This document shows, in pieces, positions 13,681 through 52,074 of a DNA stretch of 52,074 bases. A program made the translations under genes and the position numbers. Position 1 is the first letter of the stretch. The number at the start of each line of letters is the position of its first letter. Origin of the DNA: Clostridia bacterium (lineage in GTDB: Bacteria; Bacillota; Clostridia; Christensenellales; CAG-1252); the NCBI GenBank assembly GCA_017463565.1, contig JAFTOZ010000113.1, forward strand, positions 1 through 52,074, given 5' to 3'. Below the pieces are notes generated by a model, which saw only the letters and a program-made list of their open reading frames with translations, did no database searches and was not told the origin of the DNA.

Positions 13681-13709
13681 AAAAGGCAGAGCGTGGCTCT
13701 GCCTTTTTT
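13681..13709. terminator. Bidirectional terminator between convergent genes
   Basis: 12-bp stem AAAAGGCAGAGC / GCTCTGCCTTTT with a 3-nt loop. A-run and T-run flanks give a U-tail on either strand. Confidence 0.75.
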
Positions 13710-13849
13710 GGTGCTTGTCGCAGGGGTTTGCGACAAGTAAGTGATTACCTTTTTGAAAGGATTAGTGCTTGGCGCAGGGGTATGCGACAAGTAAATGGTT
13801 CCCTTTCTGAAAGGATTGGTGCTTGGCGCAGGGAATCCTTATCCGAAGG
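13710..13849. repeat. ~54-bp tandem repeat, about 2.6 copies, in the pullulanase 3' region
   Basis: The units start at 13710, 13765 and 13819. Each contains the hairpin CTTG(T/G)CGCA-N6-TGCGACAAG and CCTTT-N3-AAAGG. Confidence 0.8.
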
Positions 13850-16546
13850 TTATTGGTTGACGTTCATCAAGATAGTGACGGAACGAGCCTCGACCTCTAC
13901 GGTGTCGGTCACGGTGCCGAGAGGCGTGGTGGAGGCAAGGGCGCCCTGTGCGAATACGTTCCAAGTGCCGGGGACGTCGAAGGTGTAGGCAACCGGGTTG
14001 GGGTTGACGATGACGGTGACGTCGGTGCTAGACTCGGGATAGGCAAGGGTGAGCACGATGCAGGTGGCGGTGGCAATCTCTACCGTGGCAACCACCTCGT
14101 GGTCGGTGAAAATGGAATAGCTACGGCGCAGGTTCATAAGCGCTTTGTAGTAGGCAACCATCAGACCCACCGAGTTGTCGGGTTGGAGAGCCTCCCAATC
14201 AATGTTGTTGATAGCGTCCGAGGACATGTAGCTGTTTTCGTCACCGTCCTTGGTGCGGAGCATTTCTTCGCCTGCTTGCATGAAGGGGGTGCCTTGCGAT
14301 ACCATCACGATGGCTGCTGCCATACGGTTCATCGCCAGGCGGGTGGCTTCGTCTGCGGAGGGGCAGGTGAGAAGCAGTTTGTCCCACAGGGTGTTGTTGT
14401 CGTGCGCGGAGACGTAGTTGATGGAACGTTGGTCTTTGAGCATGAAGGGATAGCCGAGGCCGGCGCCGCCTTGCATACCGAATCCAACCGATTTGGCGGT
14501 GGTGGGAGAGGTGTTGCCGTTGACGTAGCCGCCGACTGCCTTGTCGAACACGCTGCCCTTGACACCGTCACGAATGACGTCGTTGAAGACGGAAACGGCA
14601 CCTGCTGCGCCGGGGGTGGCGGTGATTTGGTTGATGTTGGCTTGGTTGGCGGGCTTGAGCGCAAGCTCGGAAGTGCCACCCGTCCAACCCTCACCGTAGA
14701 TGAGTGCCTTGGGGTTGATAGCGTGGACTGCCTTTTCGATCTCTTGCATGGTGGTGAGATCGTGCAGAGCCATCAAGTCGAAACGGAAGCCGTCGAGGTG
14801 GTATTCGCTCATCCAATAGCTGACCGAGTCAACCATAAACTTGCGGTACATAGCACGCTCGGATGCGGTTTCGTTGCCACAACCGGAGCCGCCGCCGTTA
14901 GCGCCAGACGCGGTGTAGCGATAGTAGTAGTAGGGAACGATCTTGTTCAAAGAGGAATTGGCGTCGTGGGTGTGGTTGTAGACAACGTCCATCACTACGC
15001 CGAGACCCTTGCTATGCAGGGCTTGTACCATCTTTTTGAACTCCAGAACACGCACGGCACCGTCGAAGGGGTTGGTGCTGTAGCTGCCCTCGGGTACGTT
15101 GTAGTTCTTGGGATCGTAGCCCCAGTTGAACTCGTCCTCGGGGGTGGATTCGTCTACGGTAGCATAGTCGTAGACGGGCAGCAGGTGTACGTGGGTGACA
15201 CCCAGCTCGGCAACGTAGTCCAAACCGATCTTCATACCGTGGCTGTTGGTGAGGCCGGTCTCGGTGAAGCCGAGGAACTTGCCGGGGTAGGTGGCGGTAG
15301 CGATCTTGTTGGTGAAGTCGCGAACGTGCACTTCCCACAAAATGGCATCCGAATAGGTGGTGATGGAATCCACGAAGGTATCGGTGTCGAAACCGTCGGG
15401 ATCGGTGAGGGACAGGTCGATGACCATACCGCGGTTGCCGTTGACACCTGCGGAACGGGCGTAGGGGTCAACTGCCTCTTGCTCGCCGGCGCTGGTGGTG
15501 ACGGAATAGGTGTAGTAGGTGCCGTGGCCGATACCCTCGGCGAAGTGCTCCCACACACCCTTTTCACCCTTGGTCATAGAGATCTTGGCGATGGCTTCGC
15601 CGCCGTCACCTGCTGCAAACAGGTTGAGGACGACAGCGGACGCTGTGGGTGCCCACAGTTTGAAGGTAGTACCCCCCTCGCCGATGGTTGCTCCCAGATC
15701 GTCGCCATCGTAGACGTAGTTCTCTACGAACTCGGTGGAGTCGAAAATCTTGGTGGGCATAACGGTCTTGATACCGAATCCCTTGATTTCCATCGTGTAG
15801 GTCTTGGAAAGGTCTAATCTTTCGCCAACGGTGACGATACCGGTAGCGGATTTGACGGTGGCGGAGTTCTTGACAAGAGGCAGAACACGGTCGCCGTCAC
15901 GAACGGTGATGTCCTCCAGCGCCAGTTTGGCGGCAGGGGAAATGTTGTATTTGATGGTCGTGAACGAGGTCATTCCGGCCAGGGTGAAATCGGTGATTTG
16001 AATCAAGGTTTTTCCTCCATCGAAGCTTTCATATTGAGCAGGATCGCCCGGTTTGAGATAGATGACGGTGTTGGCACCGGTGAGAGTGATGAAGCGGTCG
16101 CTCTCTACGTCCTTGGTGGCGTTGCCCCAGGAGCTGCCGCCCGGTTCGCTACAGTTTTTGCGGACGATGAAGCCCACTTGGTCTACCGACTCGGGTACGT
16201 TGACCATCGTCTTGACACCGTAGGAACACTCGTGGAACAGATAGCCTTTGCCGGCTACTTCGCCGTACCAAATCCATACGTCACAGGTGGAATAGTCCAC
16301 AGACTTGGAATTCCAATAGATGGTGACTTGGCGCATACCCGGCTCGGGTTCCAACGTCCACTCGTCCTCGGGGGGAGTTTGGCCACCCTCGTCGATTTGT
16401 TCGCCACAGACGTCGCACTTGCCGTTGGAATCGGCGTCTACGTGCGCGGTGCAAGGTTCTTCGGGCGTGCAGGCGGTGAGCGCCATGGTTGCAAACGCCG
16501 TAGAGACCAGAACAACGACTAACAATATAGATAGTAATTTTTTCAT
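13850..16546 (-). CDS. pulA: Type I pullulanase (GH13), lipoprotein
   Basis: GH13 conserved regions are present: DVVYNHT, GFRFDLMALH, YGEGW, YVSAHDN. The start is trimmed to ATG 16546 (MKKLLSILLVV...LTAC lipobox), preceded by GGAGG. Confidence 0.9.
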   Translation of the reverse strand: MKKLLSILLVVVLVSTAFATMALTACTPEEPCTAHVDADSNGKCDVCGEQIDEGGQTPPEDEWTLEPEPGMRQVTIYWNSKSVDYSTCDVWIWYGEVAGKGYLFHECSYGVKTMVNVPESVDQVGFIVRKNCSEPGGSSWGNATKDVESDRFITLTGANTVIYLKPGDPAQYESFDGGKTLIQITDFTLAGMTSFTTIKYNISPAAKLALEDITVRDGDRVLPLVKNSATVKSATGIVTVGERLDLSKTYTMEIKGFGIKTVMPTKIFDSTEFVENYVYDGDDLGATIGEGGTTFKLWAPTASAVVLNLFAAGDGGEAIAKISMTKGEKGVWEHFAEGIGHGTYYTYSVTTSAGEQEAVDPYARSAGVNGNRGMVIDLSLTDPDGFDTDTFVDSITTYSDAILWEVHVRDFTNKIATATYPGKFLGFTETGLTNSHGMKIGLDYVAELGVTHVHLLPVYDYATVDESTPEDEFNWGYDPKNYNVPEGSYSTNPFDGAVRVLEFKKMVQALHSKGLGVVMDVVYNHTHDANSSLNKIVPYYYYRYTASGANGGGSGCGNETASERAMYRKFMVDSVSYWMSEYHLDGFRFDLMALHDLTTMQEIEKAVHAINPKALIYGEGWTGGTSELALKPANQANINQITATPGAAGAVSVFNDVIRDGVKGSVFDKAVGGYVNGNTSPTTAKSVGFGMQGGAGLGYPFMLKDQRSINYVSAHDNNTLWDKLLLTCPSADEATRLAMNRMAAAIVMVSQGTPFMQAGEEMLRTKDGDENSYMSSDAINNIDWEALQPDNSVGLMVAYYKALMNLRRSYSIFTDHEVVATVEIATATCIVLTLAYPESSTDVTVIVNPNPVAYTFDVPGTWNVFAQGALASTTPLGTVTDTVEVEARSVTILMNVNQ

Positions 16547-16597
16547 ACTGCCTCCATTTTGATTTGTTGACGCGCCCACGTGGGTGCGTGCGTATTT

Positions 16598-16626
16598 ATT
16601 ATATCGGGATATGGGCGTATTGTCAA
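16598..16626 (-). promoter_or_regulatory. Consensus sigma-A promoter (TTGACA-17-TATAAT) for the pullulanase gene
   Basis: On the minus strand, TTGACA (16626-16621), a 17-nt spacer, then TATAAT (16603-16598). Confidence 0.7.
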
Positions 16627-16630
16627 TAGC

Positions 16631-16653
16631 AAAAAACCGCCCTGTGGGCGGTT
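16631..16653 (-). terminator. Terminator immediately upstream of the pullulanase promoter
   Basis: Stem AACCGCCC / GGGCGGTT with loop TGT. A T-run follows on the minus strand. Confidence 0.65.
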
Positions 16654-16769
16654 GCAAGGGGGATTGCTTTGGGGACAATACGTAGAAAATGGGGATTGCT
16701 ACCGTTTTCATACCCAAAACAGGATAGCACGCGAGGGGTGGGAGAACAAATGATTTTGGGTTTTGGGAA

Positions 16770-25332: not shown

Positions 25333-27510
25333 TTAGTAGATGACGTCCTCCTCGATGGTGATATGGAGGGGGAGAGAGTCGTTGTAGTAGCCTGTGCCGA
25401 GGCAGGTGACGGTGACCATTTGGTAGGCGTTGCCACTATCCTCTAGCTCGAGGGTCAGGGTGTAGGTGCCGTCCCCGTTGGGGGTGAGCAGGCTGACGTT
25501 GTATTGGGTGGTGTATTTGCTATCCTCAAGGCCGCGCACCACAACCTCTACGTAGTAGGCGTTGGGGTCAAGTTGGAGATTGAGAATGAGGGTGAGGGTG
25601 CCTTCGGAATTCTCTGCCTCAAGGGTACCCGTGGGGGTAGCGAGGGTATCGGTATGGACGTAGCTGTCGAGGGCAGGTTGGCTCTGGGTGTAGTGGCCTT
25701 GGGTGGAAGTTGCGACCACACGGAAGTCTACCGTGCCAACTGCAGACAAGTGCTCAGTGACGTCGACGCGAGTGTTGCCCTCGGCGGCGGCAGATACGCT
25801 GATCTCGGTATTTCCAATCCACACGCGGAAACCGTCTGCGTGCGCTACGGGAGGGATCTCCAACCAGTAGGTGCGACCGCTCTCGCTATTCTCTACCGTG
25901 ATGAGGAAAGAGGGGGTGTCCAATTGGACGTAGTAGCTGACGGTGGCGGTGGCGGCATTGCCCTTGAGGTAGACGTCTTCGTTTGTGGAGGCGGCAACCA
26001 CGGAGAGGTTGTAGTCTCCGGGTAACATTTCGGGGAGAATATACTCTGTATATTCGCTGCCTTTGTCGACGGGAAGAATGACCTCTTGCAGATCACCGAA
26101 GTTGATGAGGAAATGGTCTGCCTCGTAGACCTCGGAGATGAGAAGTTTGTAGCCCTTGGTGAGTTCTTGGACGACGAGGGTGGGGGTTTCGAGCTGGCGC
26201 ACGAAGAAGCAGGATTCTACGTTTTCGTAGCGCGCTAAGGCACAACCCGGGAGCAGGTAGAGTTTGCGACTGCCGGTGACGAGGTCTACGGTAGAGGTGG
26301 ACTCTGCGTAGACTACGCCGCCCCGTAGGGTATCGGCGTGGCCGAAGATATGCAGGGTGGCGGTGGGCGCAAGTTGGGTGGTACCGGAGATACTGTCGGT
26401 GACACGTACGGTGATATCTTCGTCCAACGCGCTATGCTCGGCAGAGACGGACGTCAGGGTGGCGTCGCAGGAAAGGGTGAGGGTGGTGAGTTGGAGATCG
26501 GCTCCTACGTACCAATGCTCGCCCGAAAGATAGAGATCCTCGCAGGCGATCCTGCCGCCCACCTCGGGGTCTGTCCACAAATAGGCACGGTTGCCAACGA
26601 AGGCTTTGCCGTCCGCGCCTTTGAGGGTGAGTGCGCCCTCTACCGTGAGGGTGTGGCCGTTGAGGTCCAGCACGTAGCCGTCCAGGGTGAGAGAGCCGTC
26701 TACCGTGATATCATCTTTGAAGAGAAGCTCGGTGCGGTTGCCCTTTTCGAGCGCCTTGGTGAGATCCTCTACGGTATGTATAAAGGCGACGTTGCGCGTG
26801 GTGACGAAGTGGCCAACCGTAAGGCCGATGGCGACTGCAAGCACGACTGACGTGATGATGACGAACAGTTTGTGCTTTTTGAACCAGGCTTTGGTCTTTT
26901 CCTTTCGTTCTGCCTTTTTGCGTGCCTTTTCCAATTCCTCGGGGGTGGGCTCCTTTTTGTCGGAGGGCTCCTCGGTGCTTTCGGCAGGCGTTTCTTCCTC
27001 CGGAGTTTCCTCTGCGGTGGGGATATCCTCGGCAGGGGTTTCTGCAGTAGGTGCGTCCTCACAAGGGATATCCTCGGCAGGGGTTTCTGCTACGGCAGGG
27101 GTCTCCTCCTCGCAAGGGATCTCTTCTGCAATAGGTGCTTCCTCTACGGCAGGGGTCTCTTCCTCGGCAGGGGCTACTTCTTCACAGGGGGTTTCCTCTA
27201 CGATAGGCGTTTCCTCAGCAATAGGCTCTTCCACGCAGGGGGTTTCCTCACAAGGAGTTTCCTCGGCAATAGACTCTTCCTCGGCAGGTACTTCCTCTGC
27301 GATAGGTGCTTCCTCGGCAGGTGTTTCCTCTGCGATAGGTGATTCCTCGACGGCAGGGATTTCTGCAATAGGCGCGACTTCCAAGGTGGGAGTATCTATC
27401 TCTGCATTTTCTTCGATAGGGGTGGGCTCGGTGGCGGTCTCGCTCTCTACGGTGAGAGTGGGCGCGTCGACGAGGGGACGAAATTTATTCTTCTTCTTTT
27501 TCTTGCTCAT
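25333..27510 (-). CDS. Single-pass membrane protein: acidic Pro/Glu/Cys repeat N-terminal region, TM helix, ~500-aa extracytoplasmic beta-rich region
   Basis: The start is trimmed to ATG 27510 (MSKKKKKNKF), preceded by AAGGAGGT. The repeats read EETP(A/C)EE..PIAEE. The TM helix is LFVIITSVVLAVAIGLTVGHFV. Confidence 0.75.
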   Translation of the reverse strand: MSKKKKKNKFRPLVDAPTLTVESETATEPTPIEENAEIDTPTLEVAPIAEIPAVEESPIAEETPAEEAPIAEEVPAEEESIAEETPCEETPCVEEPIAEETPIVEETPCEEVAPAEEETPAVEEAPIAEEIPCEEETPAVAETPAEDIPCEDAPTAETPAEDIPTAEETPEEETPAESTEEPSDKKEPTPEELEKARKKAERKEKTKAWFKKHKLFVIITSVVLAVAIGLTVGHFVTTRNVAFIHTVEDLTKALEKGNRTELLFKDDITVDGSLTLDGYVLDLNGHTLTVEGALTLKGADGKAFVGNRAYLWTDPEVGGRIACEDLYLSGEHWYVGADLQLTTLTLSCDATLTSVSAEHSALDEDITVRVTDSISGTTQLAPTATLHIFGHADTLRGGVVYAESTSTVDLVTGSRKLYLLPGCALARYENVESCFFVRQLETPTLVVQELTKGYKLLISEVYEADHFLINFGDLQEVILPVDKGSEYTEYILPEMLPGDYNLSVVAASTNEDVYLKGNAATATVSYYVQLDTPSFLITVENSESGRTYWLEIPPVAHADGFRVWIGNTEISVSAAAEGNTRVDVTEHLSAVGTVDFRVVATSTQGHYTQSQPALDSYVHTDTLATPTGTLEAENSEGTLTLILNLQLDPNAYYVEVVVRGLEDSKYTTQYNVSLLTPNGDGTYTLTLELEDSGNAYQMVTVTCLGTGYYNDSLPLHITIEEDVIY

Positions 27511-27571
27511 GGTTACCTCCTTGGGCAATCGAATTCACTACGTTTATTATATGGGACGGAGAGGGGAATTG

Positions 27572-35364: not shown

Positions 35365-36198
35365 ATGAGTTATGCCGACCAAGTGTTTATCGACAATATC
35401 CGCCATATTTTGGAAAATGGCACAAGCGACGAGGGTATGAACGTGCGTCCCTATTGGGCGGACGACCATTCTCCTGCGCATACGGTGAAAGCTTTTGGTA
35501 TCGTGAATCGCTACGACCTGTCGAAAGAGTTTCCTATCACCACCCTGCGCCAAACTAACTTCCGCGCGGCGGTAGACGAGATCTTGTGGATCTGGCAGAA
35601 AAAGAGCAATAACGTGCACGAGTTGGGTAGCCATATCTGGGACGCTTGGGCGGACGAGAGTGGCTCTATCGGCAAGGCGTACGGCTATCAGTTGGGCGTG
35701 AAGCACCAATATAAAGAGGGTATGTTTGACCAGGTGGACAGAGTGCTGTACGACCTGAAGCACAATCCGCAGTCTCGCCGTATTATGACGAATATCTTTG
35801 TGCATCAGGACCTGCACGAAATGGCGCTGTACCCCTGTGCTTATTCCATGACCTTTAACGTGGTGGACGGCAAGTTGAACGCTATTTTGAATCAACGCTC
35901 CAACGATATGTTGGTGGCGAATAACTGGAACGTGGTGCAGTATGCCGTACTGGTGCATATGATGGCGCAGGTGAGCGGTTTGCAGGTGGGCGAGTTGGTG
36001 CACGTGATTGCAGACGCACATATCTACGACCGCCATATCCCCATTGTGAAAGAGGTGATTGAGCGCACCCCCATGGAAGCACCTAAGTTGATTATTGATC
36101 CTAACGTGAAGGATTTCTATGACTTTACGGTGGATAGTTTCCGCCTGGAGGGATATGACGCACCCAAGTTGGGTAAGCGTCTGCCGGTAGCGGTGTAG
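35365..36198 (+). CDS. thyA: Thymidylate synthase (ThyA, Bacillus ThyA-type)
   Basis: Colinear with B. subtilis ThyA from recall: ...PAHT..., EILWIWQKKSN, NPQSRR, ALYPCAY, RSNDM, EAPKLIIDPNVKDFYDFTVDSF. SD AAGGAG. Confidence 0.95.
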   Translation: MSYADQVFIDNIRHILENGTSDEGMNVRPYWADDHSPAHTVKAFGIVNRYDLSKEFPITTLRQTNFRAAVDEILWIWQKKSNNVHELGSHIWDAWADESGSIGKAYGYQLGVKHQYKEGMFDQVDRVLYDLKHNPQSRRIMTNIFVHQDLHEMALYPCAYSMTFNVVDGKLNAILNQRSNDMLVANNWNVVQYAVLVHMMAQVSGLQVGELVHVIADAHIYDRHIPIVKEVIERTPMEAPKLIIDPNVKDFYDFTVDSFRLEGYDAPKLGKRLPVAV

Positions 36199-36543
36199 CG
36201 AGAAGTCCGCGGGGAACTTCTCGCAGTGAAATCCGTCTTTGACGGGTGAAATCCACCTGCGGTGGGTGAAATCGCTTTCGCGGTGAAATCCTGCTACGCA
36301 GGGTTGCGGTGATACGTTAATTTCATCTAAACAAATTAAAGAACAAATAAAAGAAAAGAGCAGAGCGAAGCAAGAAAGTCCGCGGGGAACTTCTCGCAGT
36401 GAAATCCGTCTTTGACGGGGGAAATCCACCTGCGGTGGGTGAAATCGCTTTCGCGGTGAAATCCTGCTACGCAGGGTTGCGGTGGTACGTTTAGTTTCAT
36501 CTGAACAAATTCAAGAATAAATAAAAGAAAAGAGCAGGAAGTT
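36198..36543. repeat. Two tandem ~173-bp units, each with GTGAAATC x4 alternating with mini-hairpins
   Basis: The unit offset is 173-174 bp (for example GTCCGC at 36205 and 36378). See the findings for hairpin coordinates. Confidence 0.9.
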
Positions 36544-36559
36544 GTCCTGCTCTTTTTGT
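36524..36559. terminator. Bidirectional terminator between thyA and the CotH gene
   Basis: Stem AGAGCAGGA (36531-36539) / TCCTGCTCT (36545-36553), flanked by an A-rich run and a T-run. Confidence 0.75.
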
Positions 36560-36622: not shown

Positions 36623-38407
36623 TTATTTGAAGAAGTTCTCCAAGGCAGACTGGGCGGTGAGGCGCTTGGCACTCATATAGTCGGCGGTGGAGATATTTTG
36701 GTCGGTGCGGCCAAAGTCGGAGGCGCCACCTTCGGAGAAGGCAAGGCAGTCGGTGCGGACGTGGTCACGCACGGCTTGGACGATAGCGGAATCGGGGGTG
36801 GCGACTGCCTGGTAGTTAGCGGCGTATTTGAGGTAGATAGCACGGAAATGCTCATAGGTGAACCACTCGCCCTCCAGAATCTTGGAAATTGCGTTCATAT
36901 AGAGGGTTTGGTAGCTCTTGTCCCCCGGGGAAAGAATGGTCTTGGTGTAGAGGGGGCAGGAGACGTCTCCGTTGGGAGAGCGCGTGGAAAGGGGAGCGGC
37001 GGTCGTCATACCGTTGCCGGAGGGGTTCCAGTCCATATTGATGCCCAAACAGCGGTCGTAGTCGTAGGGAATGAAGATGGCTTGGCCGGTGGTGGGCAGG
37101 AAGTAGAGGTAGTAGTTGTTGCTGTTGTTGCGAATGCAATCGGGATTGCCCAACAGATAGTTGACCGCCTCGAAACGTGCGAAATAGTCCATATCCACTA
37201 AAGCCTCCAAATTTGTTTTGAAGGTGGGGGAGGTGGGGGATGCGGCAAGGGCATCCATCAGGGCACGGAGATATTTGTTGTGGTTGTAGTCGGGGTCGGA
37301 ACGGTCGTCGTTGGTCTTGAGAGAATAGTTGAAGCGTTGGGTGGGCGTTTCTACACCGTAGTTGTGCATACCGTTGAGGTCTGCTCTGCCGTTGGTGTAG
37401 GTGCATTTGTAGAGATCTCCGCTACGCTCCTCTTTGGAGAAGTGGCGTTTGAGGAAATGCTTGTCGATGGTTTCGTAGAGGTTGCCGACGCCAAGAGAAC
37501 GCATTTCGCCACCTTGTTTCATAGAGATTTGGGTGACGGTGATATGGGGGGCCAAGATACCGTAGGCTTGGAACATACGGTTGGCGTAGACCTCGCGCAT
37601 ATAGGTGTTGTCGTAGTTTTTGTTCCACTTGTAGTAGAACTTTTCCAGAGTGGCAAAGGTGCGGTCCTTGCGCGCGGAACGTGCCTCGTCGTCCGTCCAC
37701 TCGTGGCGGATATCTGCGCCCCAAGCGCCATCTTCGTACTCCTCGCCGTCGAAGGTTTCGCCAAGGTCGAAACGCAGGTGGACGTAGGCGTAGATATTGC
37801 CGTCCTGGTCGCAGAAGTCTCGGCGAGAGGTGTTGCCACGCATGCGCACACCCACCTCTTCGTAGTAGTAGCGCACGCCGTCTACAATGACGGTGAGGTT
37901 GCAACGGCGGTAGGTGTCGGCTTTGGCGCTGTTGCCGGTAGAAACGTAGTCGCAGTATGCTTCCTGTATTTTGAGAAGCTCGGAGGGTTCGATATCAATC
38001 TCCAAAGAGATTTGGGTGTCCTCGCTCCACAGACGGTAGTAGAGCGCCTTTTCTTCCTCGGAATAGTCCTTGTAGAAAGCGGTGTTTTGCGCCGACTTTT
38101 CGTCCGAGAAAAAGAAGGTGTCGGTGGGGGTGGGATCTACCGGATCATCGGGATCGATAGGATCGTCAGGGTCTACGGGGTCATCGGGATTGATAGGATC
38201 ATCAGGGTCTACCGGATCATCGGGGTCGATGGGGTCTTCGGGGTCGTCGGGCGTGATGGGACCGTCGGGATCGACCGGGTCGGTGGGGGTTTGCCCCGTG
38301 CCGCCGCCTGCGCCCGGCAGGGAATTCAAAAACTCGCAACCTGCAAAGGTTAGGAGCAAAATGCAGACGAGCAAAATGGGGAGTAGACGTTTGAAAAACT
38401 TGGTCAT
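36623..38407 (-). CDS. cotH: CotH-family (atypical kinase) lipoprotein with an Asp-Pro repeat linker
   Basis: The start is trimmed to ATG 38407 (MTKFFKRLLPILLVCILLLTFAGC). The linker is (DPxDPD)n. The CotH-like core includes VRMRGNTSRR and YYLYFLPTTGQAIFIPYDYD. Confidence 0.8.
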   Translation of the reverse strand: MTKFFKRLLPILLVCILLLTFAGCEFLNSLPGAGGGTGQTPTDPVDPDGPITPDDPEDPIDPDDPVDPDDPINPDDPVDPDDPIDPDDPVDPTPTDTFFFSDEKSAQNTAFYKDYSEEEKALYYRLWSEDTQISLEIDIEPSELLKIQEAYCDYVSTGNSAKADTYRRCNLTVIVDGVRYYYEEVGVRMRGNTSRRDFCDQDGNIYAYVHLRFDLGETFDGEEYEDGAWGADIRHEWTDDEARSARKDRTFATLEKFYYKWNKNYDNTYMREVYANRMFQAYGILAPHITVTQISMKQGGEMRSLGVGNLYETIDKHFLKRHFSKEERSGDLYKCTYTNGRADLNGMHNYGVETPTQRFNYSLKTNDDRSDPDYNHNKYLRALMDALAASPTSPTFKTNLEALVDMDYFARFEAVNYLLGNPDCIRNNSNNYYLYFLPTTGQAIFIPYDYDRCLGINMDWNPSGNGMTTAAPLSTRSPNGDVSCPLYTKTILSPGDKSYQTLYMNAISKILEGEWFTYEHFRAIYLKYAANYQAVATPDSAIVQAVRDHVRTDCLAFSEGGASDFGRTDQNISTADYMSAKRLTAQSALENFFK

Positions 38408-38469
38408 AGTTACCTCTCTTTTTCGTGCGCACATAGCCGCCGCGGACTATGCAATAAAAAGGGCGTACG

Positions 38470-51763: not shown

Positions 51764-51865
51764 ATGTTTTTGGGGTGATTTTGTATATTCTTTTATTTTT
51801 GTGTGTATATTTGCAGGTATTATGAATATTTATACAATAATTATTCAAAAAAAATAATCTATGCA

Positions 51866-51898
51866 TTAGCGTGTTATCCATAACGGAGAACACGCTAA
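51866..51898 (-). terminator. 10-bp stem hairpin, possible minus-strand terminator closing the upstream array
   Basis: TTAGCGTGTT / AACACGCTAA with a 13-nt loop. The minus-strand T8 run begins 11 nt after the stem, which is atypically far. Confidence 0.35.
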
Positions 51899-51900
51899 AC

Positions 51901-52074
51901 TAAGTTTGCCCTTTGGGCAAGTGAAGTTATCTACGATAGTGAAGTTCACTTTGTGAGTGAAGTTTCGCCTGACGGCGAAGTGATGGGCAAACTTAACTTC
52001 ACTTGTGCGTAGCACAAACTTCACTGCGTAGCAACTTCACTTTTGCGATAGCAAAAACTTCACTAACAGAAAAA
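51901..52074. repeat. Array of AGTGAAGTT (x3, plus one degenerate copy) and its complement AACTTCACT (x4) alternating with mini-hairpins, truncated by the window end
   Basis: Forward octamers GTGAAGTT are at 51921, 51939 and 51957, with a degenerate copy at 51980. Reverse octamers AACTTCAC are at 51995, 52017, 52033 and 52056. Palindromic spacers lie between them. Confidence 0.85.

Follow-up and report, generated by a model that had tools for sequence, protein, structure and literature searches.

The Gut-1 motif was described in 2010 by Weinberg as a noncoding RNA from human-gut metagenomes only, without a sequenced organism or a function (PMC2864571). S23p, the protein of the intervening sequences (IVSs) of 23S ribosomal RNA (rRNA), forms a homopentameric toroid, and the 23S IVS of Coxiella carries a 28-bp terminal stem, a substrate of RNase III, and, ahead of its open reading frame (ORF), heptamer repeats that vary between strains (PMC4990558). 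The Avd protein of diversity-generating retroelements is a similar pentameric four-helix bundle that works with a structured RNA (PMC10053308). Here we analyzed a contig of 52,074 nucleotides from Clostridia bacterium (JAFTOZ010000113.1; "the window" hereafter), in which a repeat array lies 3' of the thymidylate synthase gene thyA and a second, related element lies at the window end. The thyA-3' repeat consists of two tandem Gut-1 (RF01706) arrays. Gut-1 itself is the left half (S half) of a bipartite element of about 180 nt, which is new here, and complete elements are physically coupled to a gene of the S23p family, PF05635, which they precede by about 50 nt or flank.

Both units behind thyA exceeded the curated cut-off of the RF01706 covariance model, 50 bits (Table 1), with E-values of 1.5e-9 and 1.6e-7 in a search of the whole window. 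Both fit its consensus, UGAAAU-hairpin-GUGAAAU-hairpin-GUGAAAU-hairpin-GUGAAAU, and share with the published motif the UGAAAU linkers, the three covarying hairpins, and the gut-metagenome habitat. In unit 1, the octamer GTGAAATC starts at positions 36226, 36246, 36266, and 36283 and is followed each time by a short perfect hairpin (CCGTC-TTT-GACGG, CCACC-TGC-GGTGG, CGC-TTTC-GCG, and CCTGC-TAC-GCAGG, respectively); unit 2 carries GTGAAATC at 36399, 36439, and 36456 and the variant GGGAAATC at 36419. The two 173-nt units (36198-36370 and 36371-36543) differ by 7 substitutions and 1 indel over their common core. The pattern GTGAARTY occurs 19 times in the window, compared to 6.6 times expected, and none of 100 shuffles reached 19. 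Nearly every detail of the layout, tandem units, and coordinates given by a first-pass annotation of this DNA was thus confirmed, but its view that such palindrome clusters are poorly documented in Firmicutes was not supported, the motif being Rfam's Gut-1, published in 2010. Literature searches on Gut-1 returned the 2010 paper alone, and those on GTGAAAT/ATTTCAC returned nothing relevant.

Further copies, which the first-pass annotation proposed to look for, are present in the genome and in relatives: a pattern scan of species-representative genomes gave at least 120 loci among the matches listed, most of them in metagenome-assembled genomes of gut and rumen Clostridia. In about 35 of these, the forward GTGAAAT array is followed some 30 nt on by an inverted ATTTCAC array, and the two are always convergent. 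An alignment made with MAFFT from S halves and complete elements put units with differing hairpin numbers out of register, and the modules were therefore parsed by scripts instead. The element consists of an entry hairpin or terminator, about five heptamers with variable hairpins, a centre, and an inverted array of four to five anti-heptamers with hairpins (L half). The S half, which equals Rfam Gut-1, has short stems with U-N-C loops, and the L half has stems of about 7 bp with GNA or GNNA loops. Whereas the published motif is 77 nt long and has neither context nor function, Gut-1 as seen here belongs to a bipartite element, of which it forms one half and which is linked to the 3' ends of transfer RNA (tRNA) and other genes and to PF05635 genes.

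Several lines of evidence point to folding of the element. Hairpin positions were paired in 97% of cases, compared to 50 to 69% after swapping arms between elements, and none of 500 permutations reached 97%. At the orthologous loci L041 and L058, stems are maintained by compensatory changes. These data support selection for pairing, in line with the argument of the first-pass annotation for selection on structure, and none of the outcomes that it had named as refuting was encountered. The centre of the element can pair with the beginning of the S half, and the long-range helix P1 formed in this way covaries in at least six sequence types across relatives. The types of heptamer and anti-heptamer also agree within an element (GTGAAAT/ATTTCAC, GTGAAGTT/AACTTCAC, GTGATAT/ATATCAC, and ATGAAAT/ATTTCAT), and L059 holds a compensatory GTGAAGT/ACTTCAC pair inside one element. 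In minimum-free-energy folds of full relatives, four heptamer helices are stacked, with the hairpins branching off, giving a stem that is segmented into 4 x 7 bp. That the repeat is nothing but a local slippage duplication with palindromes arisen by chance has next to no probability left in the face of these data, since a single unit already belongs to a large family with covarying stems. The 173-nt unit is indeed tandemly duplicated, and the duplication is polymorphic, but slippage accounts for the second copy only and is refuted for the unit itself.

Two further kinds of array were seen in the family. Hairpin arrays with GNA/GNNA loops linked by CATCAT or ATATCATCA occur in L008 (3324-3372 and 3603-3651) and L002 (4907-4962), where they follow the terminator of GTGAAAT-type S arrays, and two heptamer classes can therefore adjoin. 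Contiguous GTGAAAT-type heptad runs without hairpins occur in L023 (972-1130), 46 nt from a PF05635 gene, and in L048 (9-71).

The gene coupled to complete elements is well defined. In L009, L027, L041, L057, L058, and L069, the last ATTTCAC lies 15 to 59 nt 5' of a gene for a protein of 113 to 119 aa that belongs to PF05635/TIGR02436 (S23p, "23S rRNA intervening-sequence protein"), a four-helix bundle of which the PDB structures 2rld and 2gsc contain five chains each. In a reverse search from the PF05635 protein into metagenome contigs, S and L arrays were found upstream in 12 of the 13 homologues that were at least 60% identical. Rfam Gut-1 matches were located on the gene strand in 12 of 20 such loci scanned, with tRNAs 5' of many, and 28 of the 80 loci of this search had a co-oriented tRNA within 450 nt upstream. 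In L275, L295, and L297 the gene lies between the S and L arrays, which in this arrangement occupy the 5' and 3' untranslated parts of the PF05635 transcript (clearly so in L275 and L297). More distant PF05635 genes have contiguous heptads on their 5' side, together with inverted copies of these, and the two form one long hairpin. On a neighbour-joining tree of the PF05635 proteins, the heptamer follows the protein clade, with [G/A]TGAAAT in 18/18 loci of one clade, GTGATAT in 6/7 of another, ATGATG in 3/3, and GTGAAG in 3 to 4 of 4. The first-pass annotation had proposed a search for a Y1 HUH (RAYT/IS200-like) transposase; there is none in the window, and the recurrent partner is this four-helix-bundle gene. 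Neither a recombinase nor a transposase was consistently near the elements examined.

The distance from the last ATTTCAC to the adjoining -35 box of the PF05635 promoter is fixed. This is what one would expect if the arrays were operators in double-stranded DNA, with the PF05635 protein as an autoregulator that binds heptads in both orientations and the gene-less copies as decoy or regulon sites, and the contiguous heptads of distant relatives and beside the L023 gene point the same way. Plasmid omega/ParR-type repressors have heptad operators of a similar kind. However, heptamer spacing in the duplex varies from about 16 to 26 bp with the length of the hairpins and becomes constant upon folding only; an operator would leave the compensatory evolution of the stems and the G.T and G.A strand bias described below unexplained, and gene-flanking arrays lie in untranslated parts of the gene's own transcript. 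We thus regard the operator explanation as improbable. Rex/CRP boxes (TGTGA..TCACA) and parS half-sites (GTGAAAC) were also considered and dropped, as they need inverted half-sites at a fixed duplex spacing.

Both elements of the window lack the gene, no PF05635 ORF being present within it, and are probably orphans; their close relatives L263, L260, L301, and L277 carry the PF05635 ORF. The S half behind thyA is 87 to 89% identical to the gene-linked elements L263, L260, and L301, whose four hairpins it shares in identical order, but it lacks an L half except for a single anti-heptamer, ATTTCATC. This remnant is able to pair with GUGAAAU, one G.U pair included, and aligns to the first ATTTCAC of full elements of the L027/L263 type; among thyA strains it is mostly kept as TTTCATC and reads TTTTATT in one strain. 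The related array that had been placed at 51901-52074 proved real and spans 51897-52074. Its array (51897-51968), of the GTGAAGTT variant, scored 43.5 bits against RF01706 and, unlike the thyA units, stays under the cut-off. This second element is 73% identical to the gene-linked element of L277, and its entry hairpin P0 is homologous to that of the secG-linked element in L027. Only one further contig holds the gene neighbouring the second element, and it stops at the same base.

Table 1. Coordinates of the features of the two elements and of their neighbouring genes in the window
Feature	Position	Strand	Basis and remarks
thyA (thymidylate synthase)	35365-36198	+	ORF; PF00303 on homologues; TAG stop at 36196-36198, its last base shared with the first base of the element
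P0, 9-bp entry hairpin of unit 1	36198-36224	+	Sequence, fold; arms GCGAGAAGT (36198-36206) and ACTTCTCGC (36216-36224)
Gut-1 (S-half) array of unit 1, four copies of GTGAAATC with hairpins hpA to hpC	36224-36294	+	RF01706, 60.2 bits
hpD (CCTGC-TAC-GCAGG) and degenerate fifth heptamer GTTGCGG	36290-36309	+	Sequence; GTTGCGG occupies the position held by GTGAC/GTGAG/GTTAAGG in relatives
ATTTCATC, sole remaining anti-heptamer (L-half remnant)	36320-36327	+	Sequence, alignment
A-rich tail of unit 1 and duplication junction	36328-36370	+	Without terminator
Unit 2, tandem copy with P0', S array, and GTTTCATC (36494-36501)	36371-36543	+	RF01706, 52.2 bits over 36397-36467; alignment
Two-way intrinsic terminator common to the thyA side and convergent cotH	36528-36558	both	A-run/T-run form; kept by unit 2 only
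cotH, convergent with thyA	36623-38434	minus	
Candidate sigma-70-type promoter TTTGCA-17-TACAAT, about 30 nt 5' of the second element	51810-51838	+	Consensus scan only; AT-rich region with 6 consensus sites versus 1.7 expected
P0 hairpin of the second element, TAGCGTGTT / AACACGCTA	51867-51897	+	Sequence
S half of the second element: x0 AAGTT, hpA, three copies of GTGAAGTT with hairpins, degenerate GTGATG	51898-51985	+	Sub-threshold RF01706
GGCAAACTT, 3' strand of long-range helix P1	51986-51994	+	Sequence, covariation in relatives; pairs with AAGTTTGCC (51902-51910)
L half of the second element: four inverted copies of AACTTCAC, hairpins with GTA/GATA loops	51995-52074	+	Cut by contig end

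The strand on which the elements act was assessed from the mismatches in their stems and from their position. On the Rfam strand (S to L, plus), stems contain 18 G.T versus 7 A.C mismatches and tandem mismatches comprise 17 G.A versus 6 C.T, and in about 38 of 46 cases the S side directly follows a gene that runs in the same direction. A tRNA gene lies directly 5' of 20 out of 51 elements, with many different anticodons represented. The first-pass annotation had favoured the minus strand on account of its G-N-A loops, a reading that these counts contradict; the loop argument also fails across the family, in which GNA/GNNA loops are found on the plus strand in the L half. As to its proposal to fold both strands, either strand of a thyA unit folds well below shuffles (z = -3.7 and -5.0), but folding does not single out one of them. 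Since P0 of unit 1 has no T-run, thyA transcription would enter the array. The G.T and G.A bias, the co-orientation, and the lack of a terminator between thyA and its array are indirect hints that the element may be expressed as a noncoding RNA on the strand modelled for Gut-1. The asymmetry as such does not separate RNA from a lagging-strand template, because both have the sense-strand sequence.

Such an RNA could in principle be free-standing, in keeping with its class in Rfam, and act in trans, its GUGAAAU linkers titrating a protein or pairing with targets in the manner of CsrB/RsmZ. A sponge would be well served by linkers held between clamp hairpins, S-only copies finish in an A/U-rich tract and a terminator, promoter-like sites lie upstream of the window-end copy and of other exceptions, and the motif was published as a noncoding RNA (PMC2864571). 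Like the CsrB/RsmZ sponge RNAs, the elements present a short constant motif among variable stem-loops, but motif and protein are different ones, full elements hold the motif's own complement, and the elements are not free-standing genes: they are usually fused onto the 3' end of another gene. Moreover, apart from the outward-facing PF05635 promoter, neither side of full elements showed a promoter at a constant distance. The sequence similarity of paralogous copies starts at the entry hairpin and stops at the last heptamer, and the many divergent copies differ in presence by species and in number by strain, which together leave a trans-acting small RNA quite unlikely.

The orthologous thyA-cotH spacers, whose comparison had been proposed, differ in unit number. 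Among ten contigs with an identical ThyA protein, six have one unit (spacer of 245 to 255 nt), three, like the window, have two (spacer of 422 to 425 nt), and one ends within the array. Their thyA genes differ at 0 to 8 of 834 sites, at third codon positions only, and the element diverges several-fold more than thyA. The changes between strains affect the initial heptamer bases (GTG to GGG, GCG, ACG, or ATG) and the tail, and the stems hold. Species with 81 to 88% identical ThyA have plain terminators at this site, and the array is absent. In a related species (L255, 10840-10900), the plain thyA terminator is AAATCCGTCCC..GGGACGGATTT, which agrees in sequence type with the first hairpin and the long-range helix of GTGAAATC-class elements. 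Tandem whole elements were also seen in L264 (928-1262), in L008 (3475-3849), and in Weinberg's BAAZ01000130 (four copies, 240 nt apart), and unit duplication as at thyA therefore recurs in the family. A thymidylate synthase product of 419 aa (P0001), compared to 277 aa in the window, is recorded on two contigs and could be a fusion or reflect another start call. The arrays vary in copy number between strains of one species, and they break metagenome assemblies, contigs ending within them.

Between species, many pairs of elements are 85 to 92% identical although their flanks are unrelated, and in L027, whose SecG is only 30% identical, the S half behind secG is 83 to 88% identical to that of the window. 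Paralogues share sequence exactly from the entry hairpin through the last heptamer, about 10 of 75 loci have further copies in their flanks, and the window contains two loci within 52 kb. Clustered palindromes in many copies after genes or between convergent genes, units that are mosaic in both orientations, copy-number variation, and a protein gene flanked by its own repeats in addition to many orphans are features shared with repetitive extragenic palindromes (REPs) and bacterial interspersed mosaic elements (BIMEs). The likeness to REP/BIME put forward in the first-pass annotation was thus borne out as far as dispersal, location after genes, and variable copy number are concerned, and it broke down on the sequence and the partner: REPs have conserved stems and a 5' GTAG, whereas here the stems vary, the linkers are constant, and GTAG is absent, and the partner of REP/BIME is a REP-associated tyrosine transposase (RAYT, Y1 HUH), whereas the partner here is PF05635. 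No RAYT gene was found in the window or beside the elements examined.

The identity between species, the sharp copy boundaries, and the contigs that end in arrays would be accounted for by mobile DNA of the REP/BIME type or the miniature inverted-repeat transposable element type that folds as single-stranded DNA while it is replicated and depends for its movement on an enzyme from another locus, for instance, a Y1 HUH protein recognising hairpin and ATTTCAC. The strand bias is compatible with a lagging-strand template, and GNA/GNNA loops with a C-G closing pair are very stable in DNA. Yet neither an HUH nor any other transposase gene is present within the window or recurrent near the elements, the sole recurrent neighbour is a four-helix bundle that does not look enzymatic, target-site duplications were not observed, the copies of a single genome (L073, L075, and L076) have unlike stems, which does not fit a recent burst, and in L275 and L297 the arrays clearly lie within a transcript. 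We therefore consider this explanation unlikely. A link to phages was dropped as well, as only about 6 of 120 pattern matches in viral contigs were true elements. Integrase arm-type sites were likewise discarded: a recombinase is near the element of L070 only, and in L057 an old integration scar at a tRNA has the element on its chromosomal side. In L070, a tyrosine-recombinase-like gene lies about 297 nt 3' of the element (580-737), which stands behind tRNA-Asn/tRNA-Glu, the sole such case seen. In L057, the last 16 nt of tRNA-Gln (CCTTATACCTCTGCCA; tRNA at 808-881) recur about 340 nt on (1218-1233), before the entry terminator, an integration scar at the tRNA 3' end by which the original tRNA-element junction was displaced.

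The elements were also compared with other known arrays. Clustered regularly interspaced short palindromic repeats (CRISPR) also alternate constant and variable segments, but the constant part is 7 to 8 nt here versus 23 to 55 nt, the variable parts are palindromes of 9 to 19 nt, there are just three to five units, and no cas domains were found within the window. Integron attC sites were rejected for want of R'/R'' cores, and mimicry of a T-loop or K-turn was considered as a resemblance but not adopted. A type III toxin-antitoxin RNA array was rejected because the gene 3' of the array is the convergent cotH and the array units are not identical. The PF05635 protein is homologous or similar to Avd, but, unlike in Avd systems, no reverse transcriptase, template, or variable repeats were found near the elements.

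The window contains other repeats. Within cotH, in-frame repeats of 9, 18, 27, and 36 nt of the GGATCATCG type occupy 38132-38288, and the CotH product has 588 or 594 aa depending on the strain, so the repeat length in this gene is also variable. At 13700-13835, adjoining the 3' end of a pullulanase-like gene (13850-16717, minus), 54-nt tandem units (2.3 copies, 89% match), distinct from Gut-1, each contain two small hairpins, TTGTCGC..GCGACAA and CCTTT..AAAGG. Long in-frame tandem repeats are located at 27071-27349 (15 to 72 nt, in ORF 25333-27528, without Pfam match) and at 1018-1622 (27 to 93 nt, in ORF 1040-2755, with a PAP2 domain).

Among the described systems, the elements look like IVS-type cassettes, sharing with the IVS an S23p gene, heptads, and a stable-RNA setting. 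As in the 23S IVSs of Coxiella and Leptospira, the protein belongs to PF05635, and inverted repeats of 7-nt periodicity enclose its ORF or stand ahead of it, the Coxiella stem measuring 28 bp, that is, 4 x 7. Both are tied to stable-RNA operons, behave in a selfish-type manner, and are prone to decay. The long terminal stem typical of the IVS is segmented into 4 x 7 bp in the predicted folds of full relatives and continuous in distant ones, and a single anti-heptamer is left of it at thyA. Unlike the IVS, however, Gut-1 elements lie after thyA, secG, or tRNA genes and not in helix 25 or 45 of 23S rRNA, and Rfam scans of the elements gave no rRNA match; the hairpins interrupt the heptads in the Gut-1 lineage, and many copies lack the gene.

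Taking these data together, we think it rather likely, if far from certain, that Gut-1 arrays are the S half of an IVS-like cassette linked to PF05635 and that the thyA copy is an orphan relic of one. The family would then consist of selfish cassettes, the gene-less copies being orphans, and the element would work as a folded single strand, most likely an RNA produced when the upstream gene is transcribed. In the case of thyA, where no terminator precedes the array, upstream transcription could supply this RNA. The clamp hairpins would align the heptamers, and pairing of S with L would yield the segmented helix of 4 x 7 bp, a putative counterpart of the 28-bp RNase III stem of the 23S IVS; in addition, the pentameric protein may recognise the heptamers. 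Protein binding by the heptamers and RNase III-type processing are thus predictions drawn from sequence comparison.

Several observations weigh against this account. Most commonly, the full S-L element is placed behind a strong-looking terminator and ahead of the PF05635 promoter, so that only read-through would transcribe it. The strand asymmetry fits single-stranded DNA folding of the lagging-strand template equally well. The covariation of heptamer and protein clade could be explained by linkage and selection for S:L pairing, without any protein contact, and the proteins of clade A are not basic, as judged by eye from their sequences. Single heptamer changes are uncompensated in L025, L058, and L069, the heptamer of the downstream array is non-complementary in L002, L008, and L038, and copies have spread although neither recombinases nor transposases are regular neighbours.

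What follows for thyA is modest. Because it is truncated, present in one or two units depending on the strain, and absent from sister species, the thyA copy is probably a decaying relic that is transcribed as part of the thyA 3' untranslated region (UTR), most likely a passenger and at most a structured 3' UTR. In practical terms, arrays of this kind matter because they interrupt metagenome assemblies and differ in number between strains.

For the family, the findings allow a broader proposal, which we put forward tentatively and would not yet expect to hold in full: Gut-1 arrays may be the cis-acting ends of unrecognised, widespread IVS-like selfish cassettes of gut Clostridia, which would insert behind tRNA operons and genes, at their 3' ends, encode an S23p/Avd-like pentamer, and use lineage-specific heptamers, aligned by clamp hairpins, both as a recognition code for the pentamer and as a segmented processing stem. 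Gut-1 has had a single descriptive sentence in Rfam since 2010, and S23p/PF05635 has been without a function since 1993 in spite of crystal structures, save for its Avd relatives in retroelements. Through the link to PF05635, Gut-1 gains a testable partner for the first time. With the tracking of heptamer and protein clade, a pentamer facing about five heptamers per half, and a tRNA-operon setting that parallels the rRNA setting of the IVSs, the two orphans become one testable system, and, if the proposal is true, one experiment could address both the Gut-1 RNA and the S23p family.

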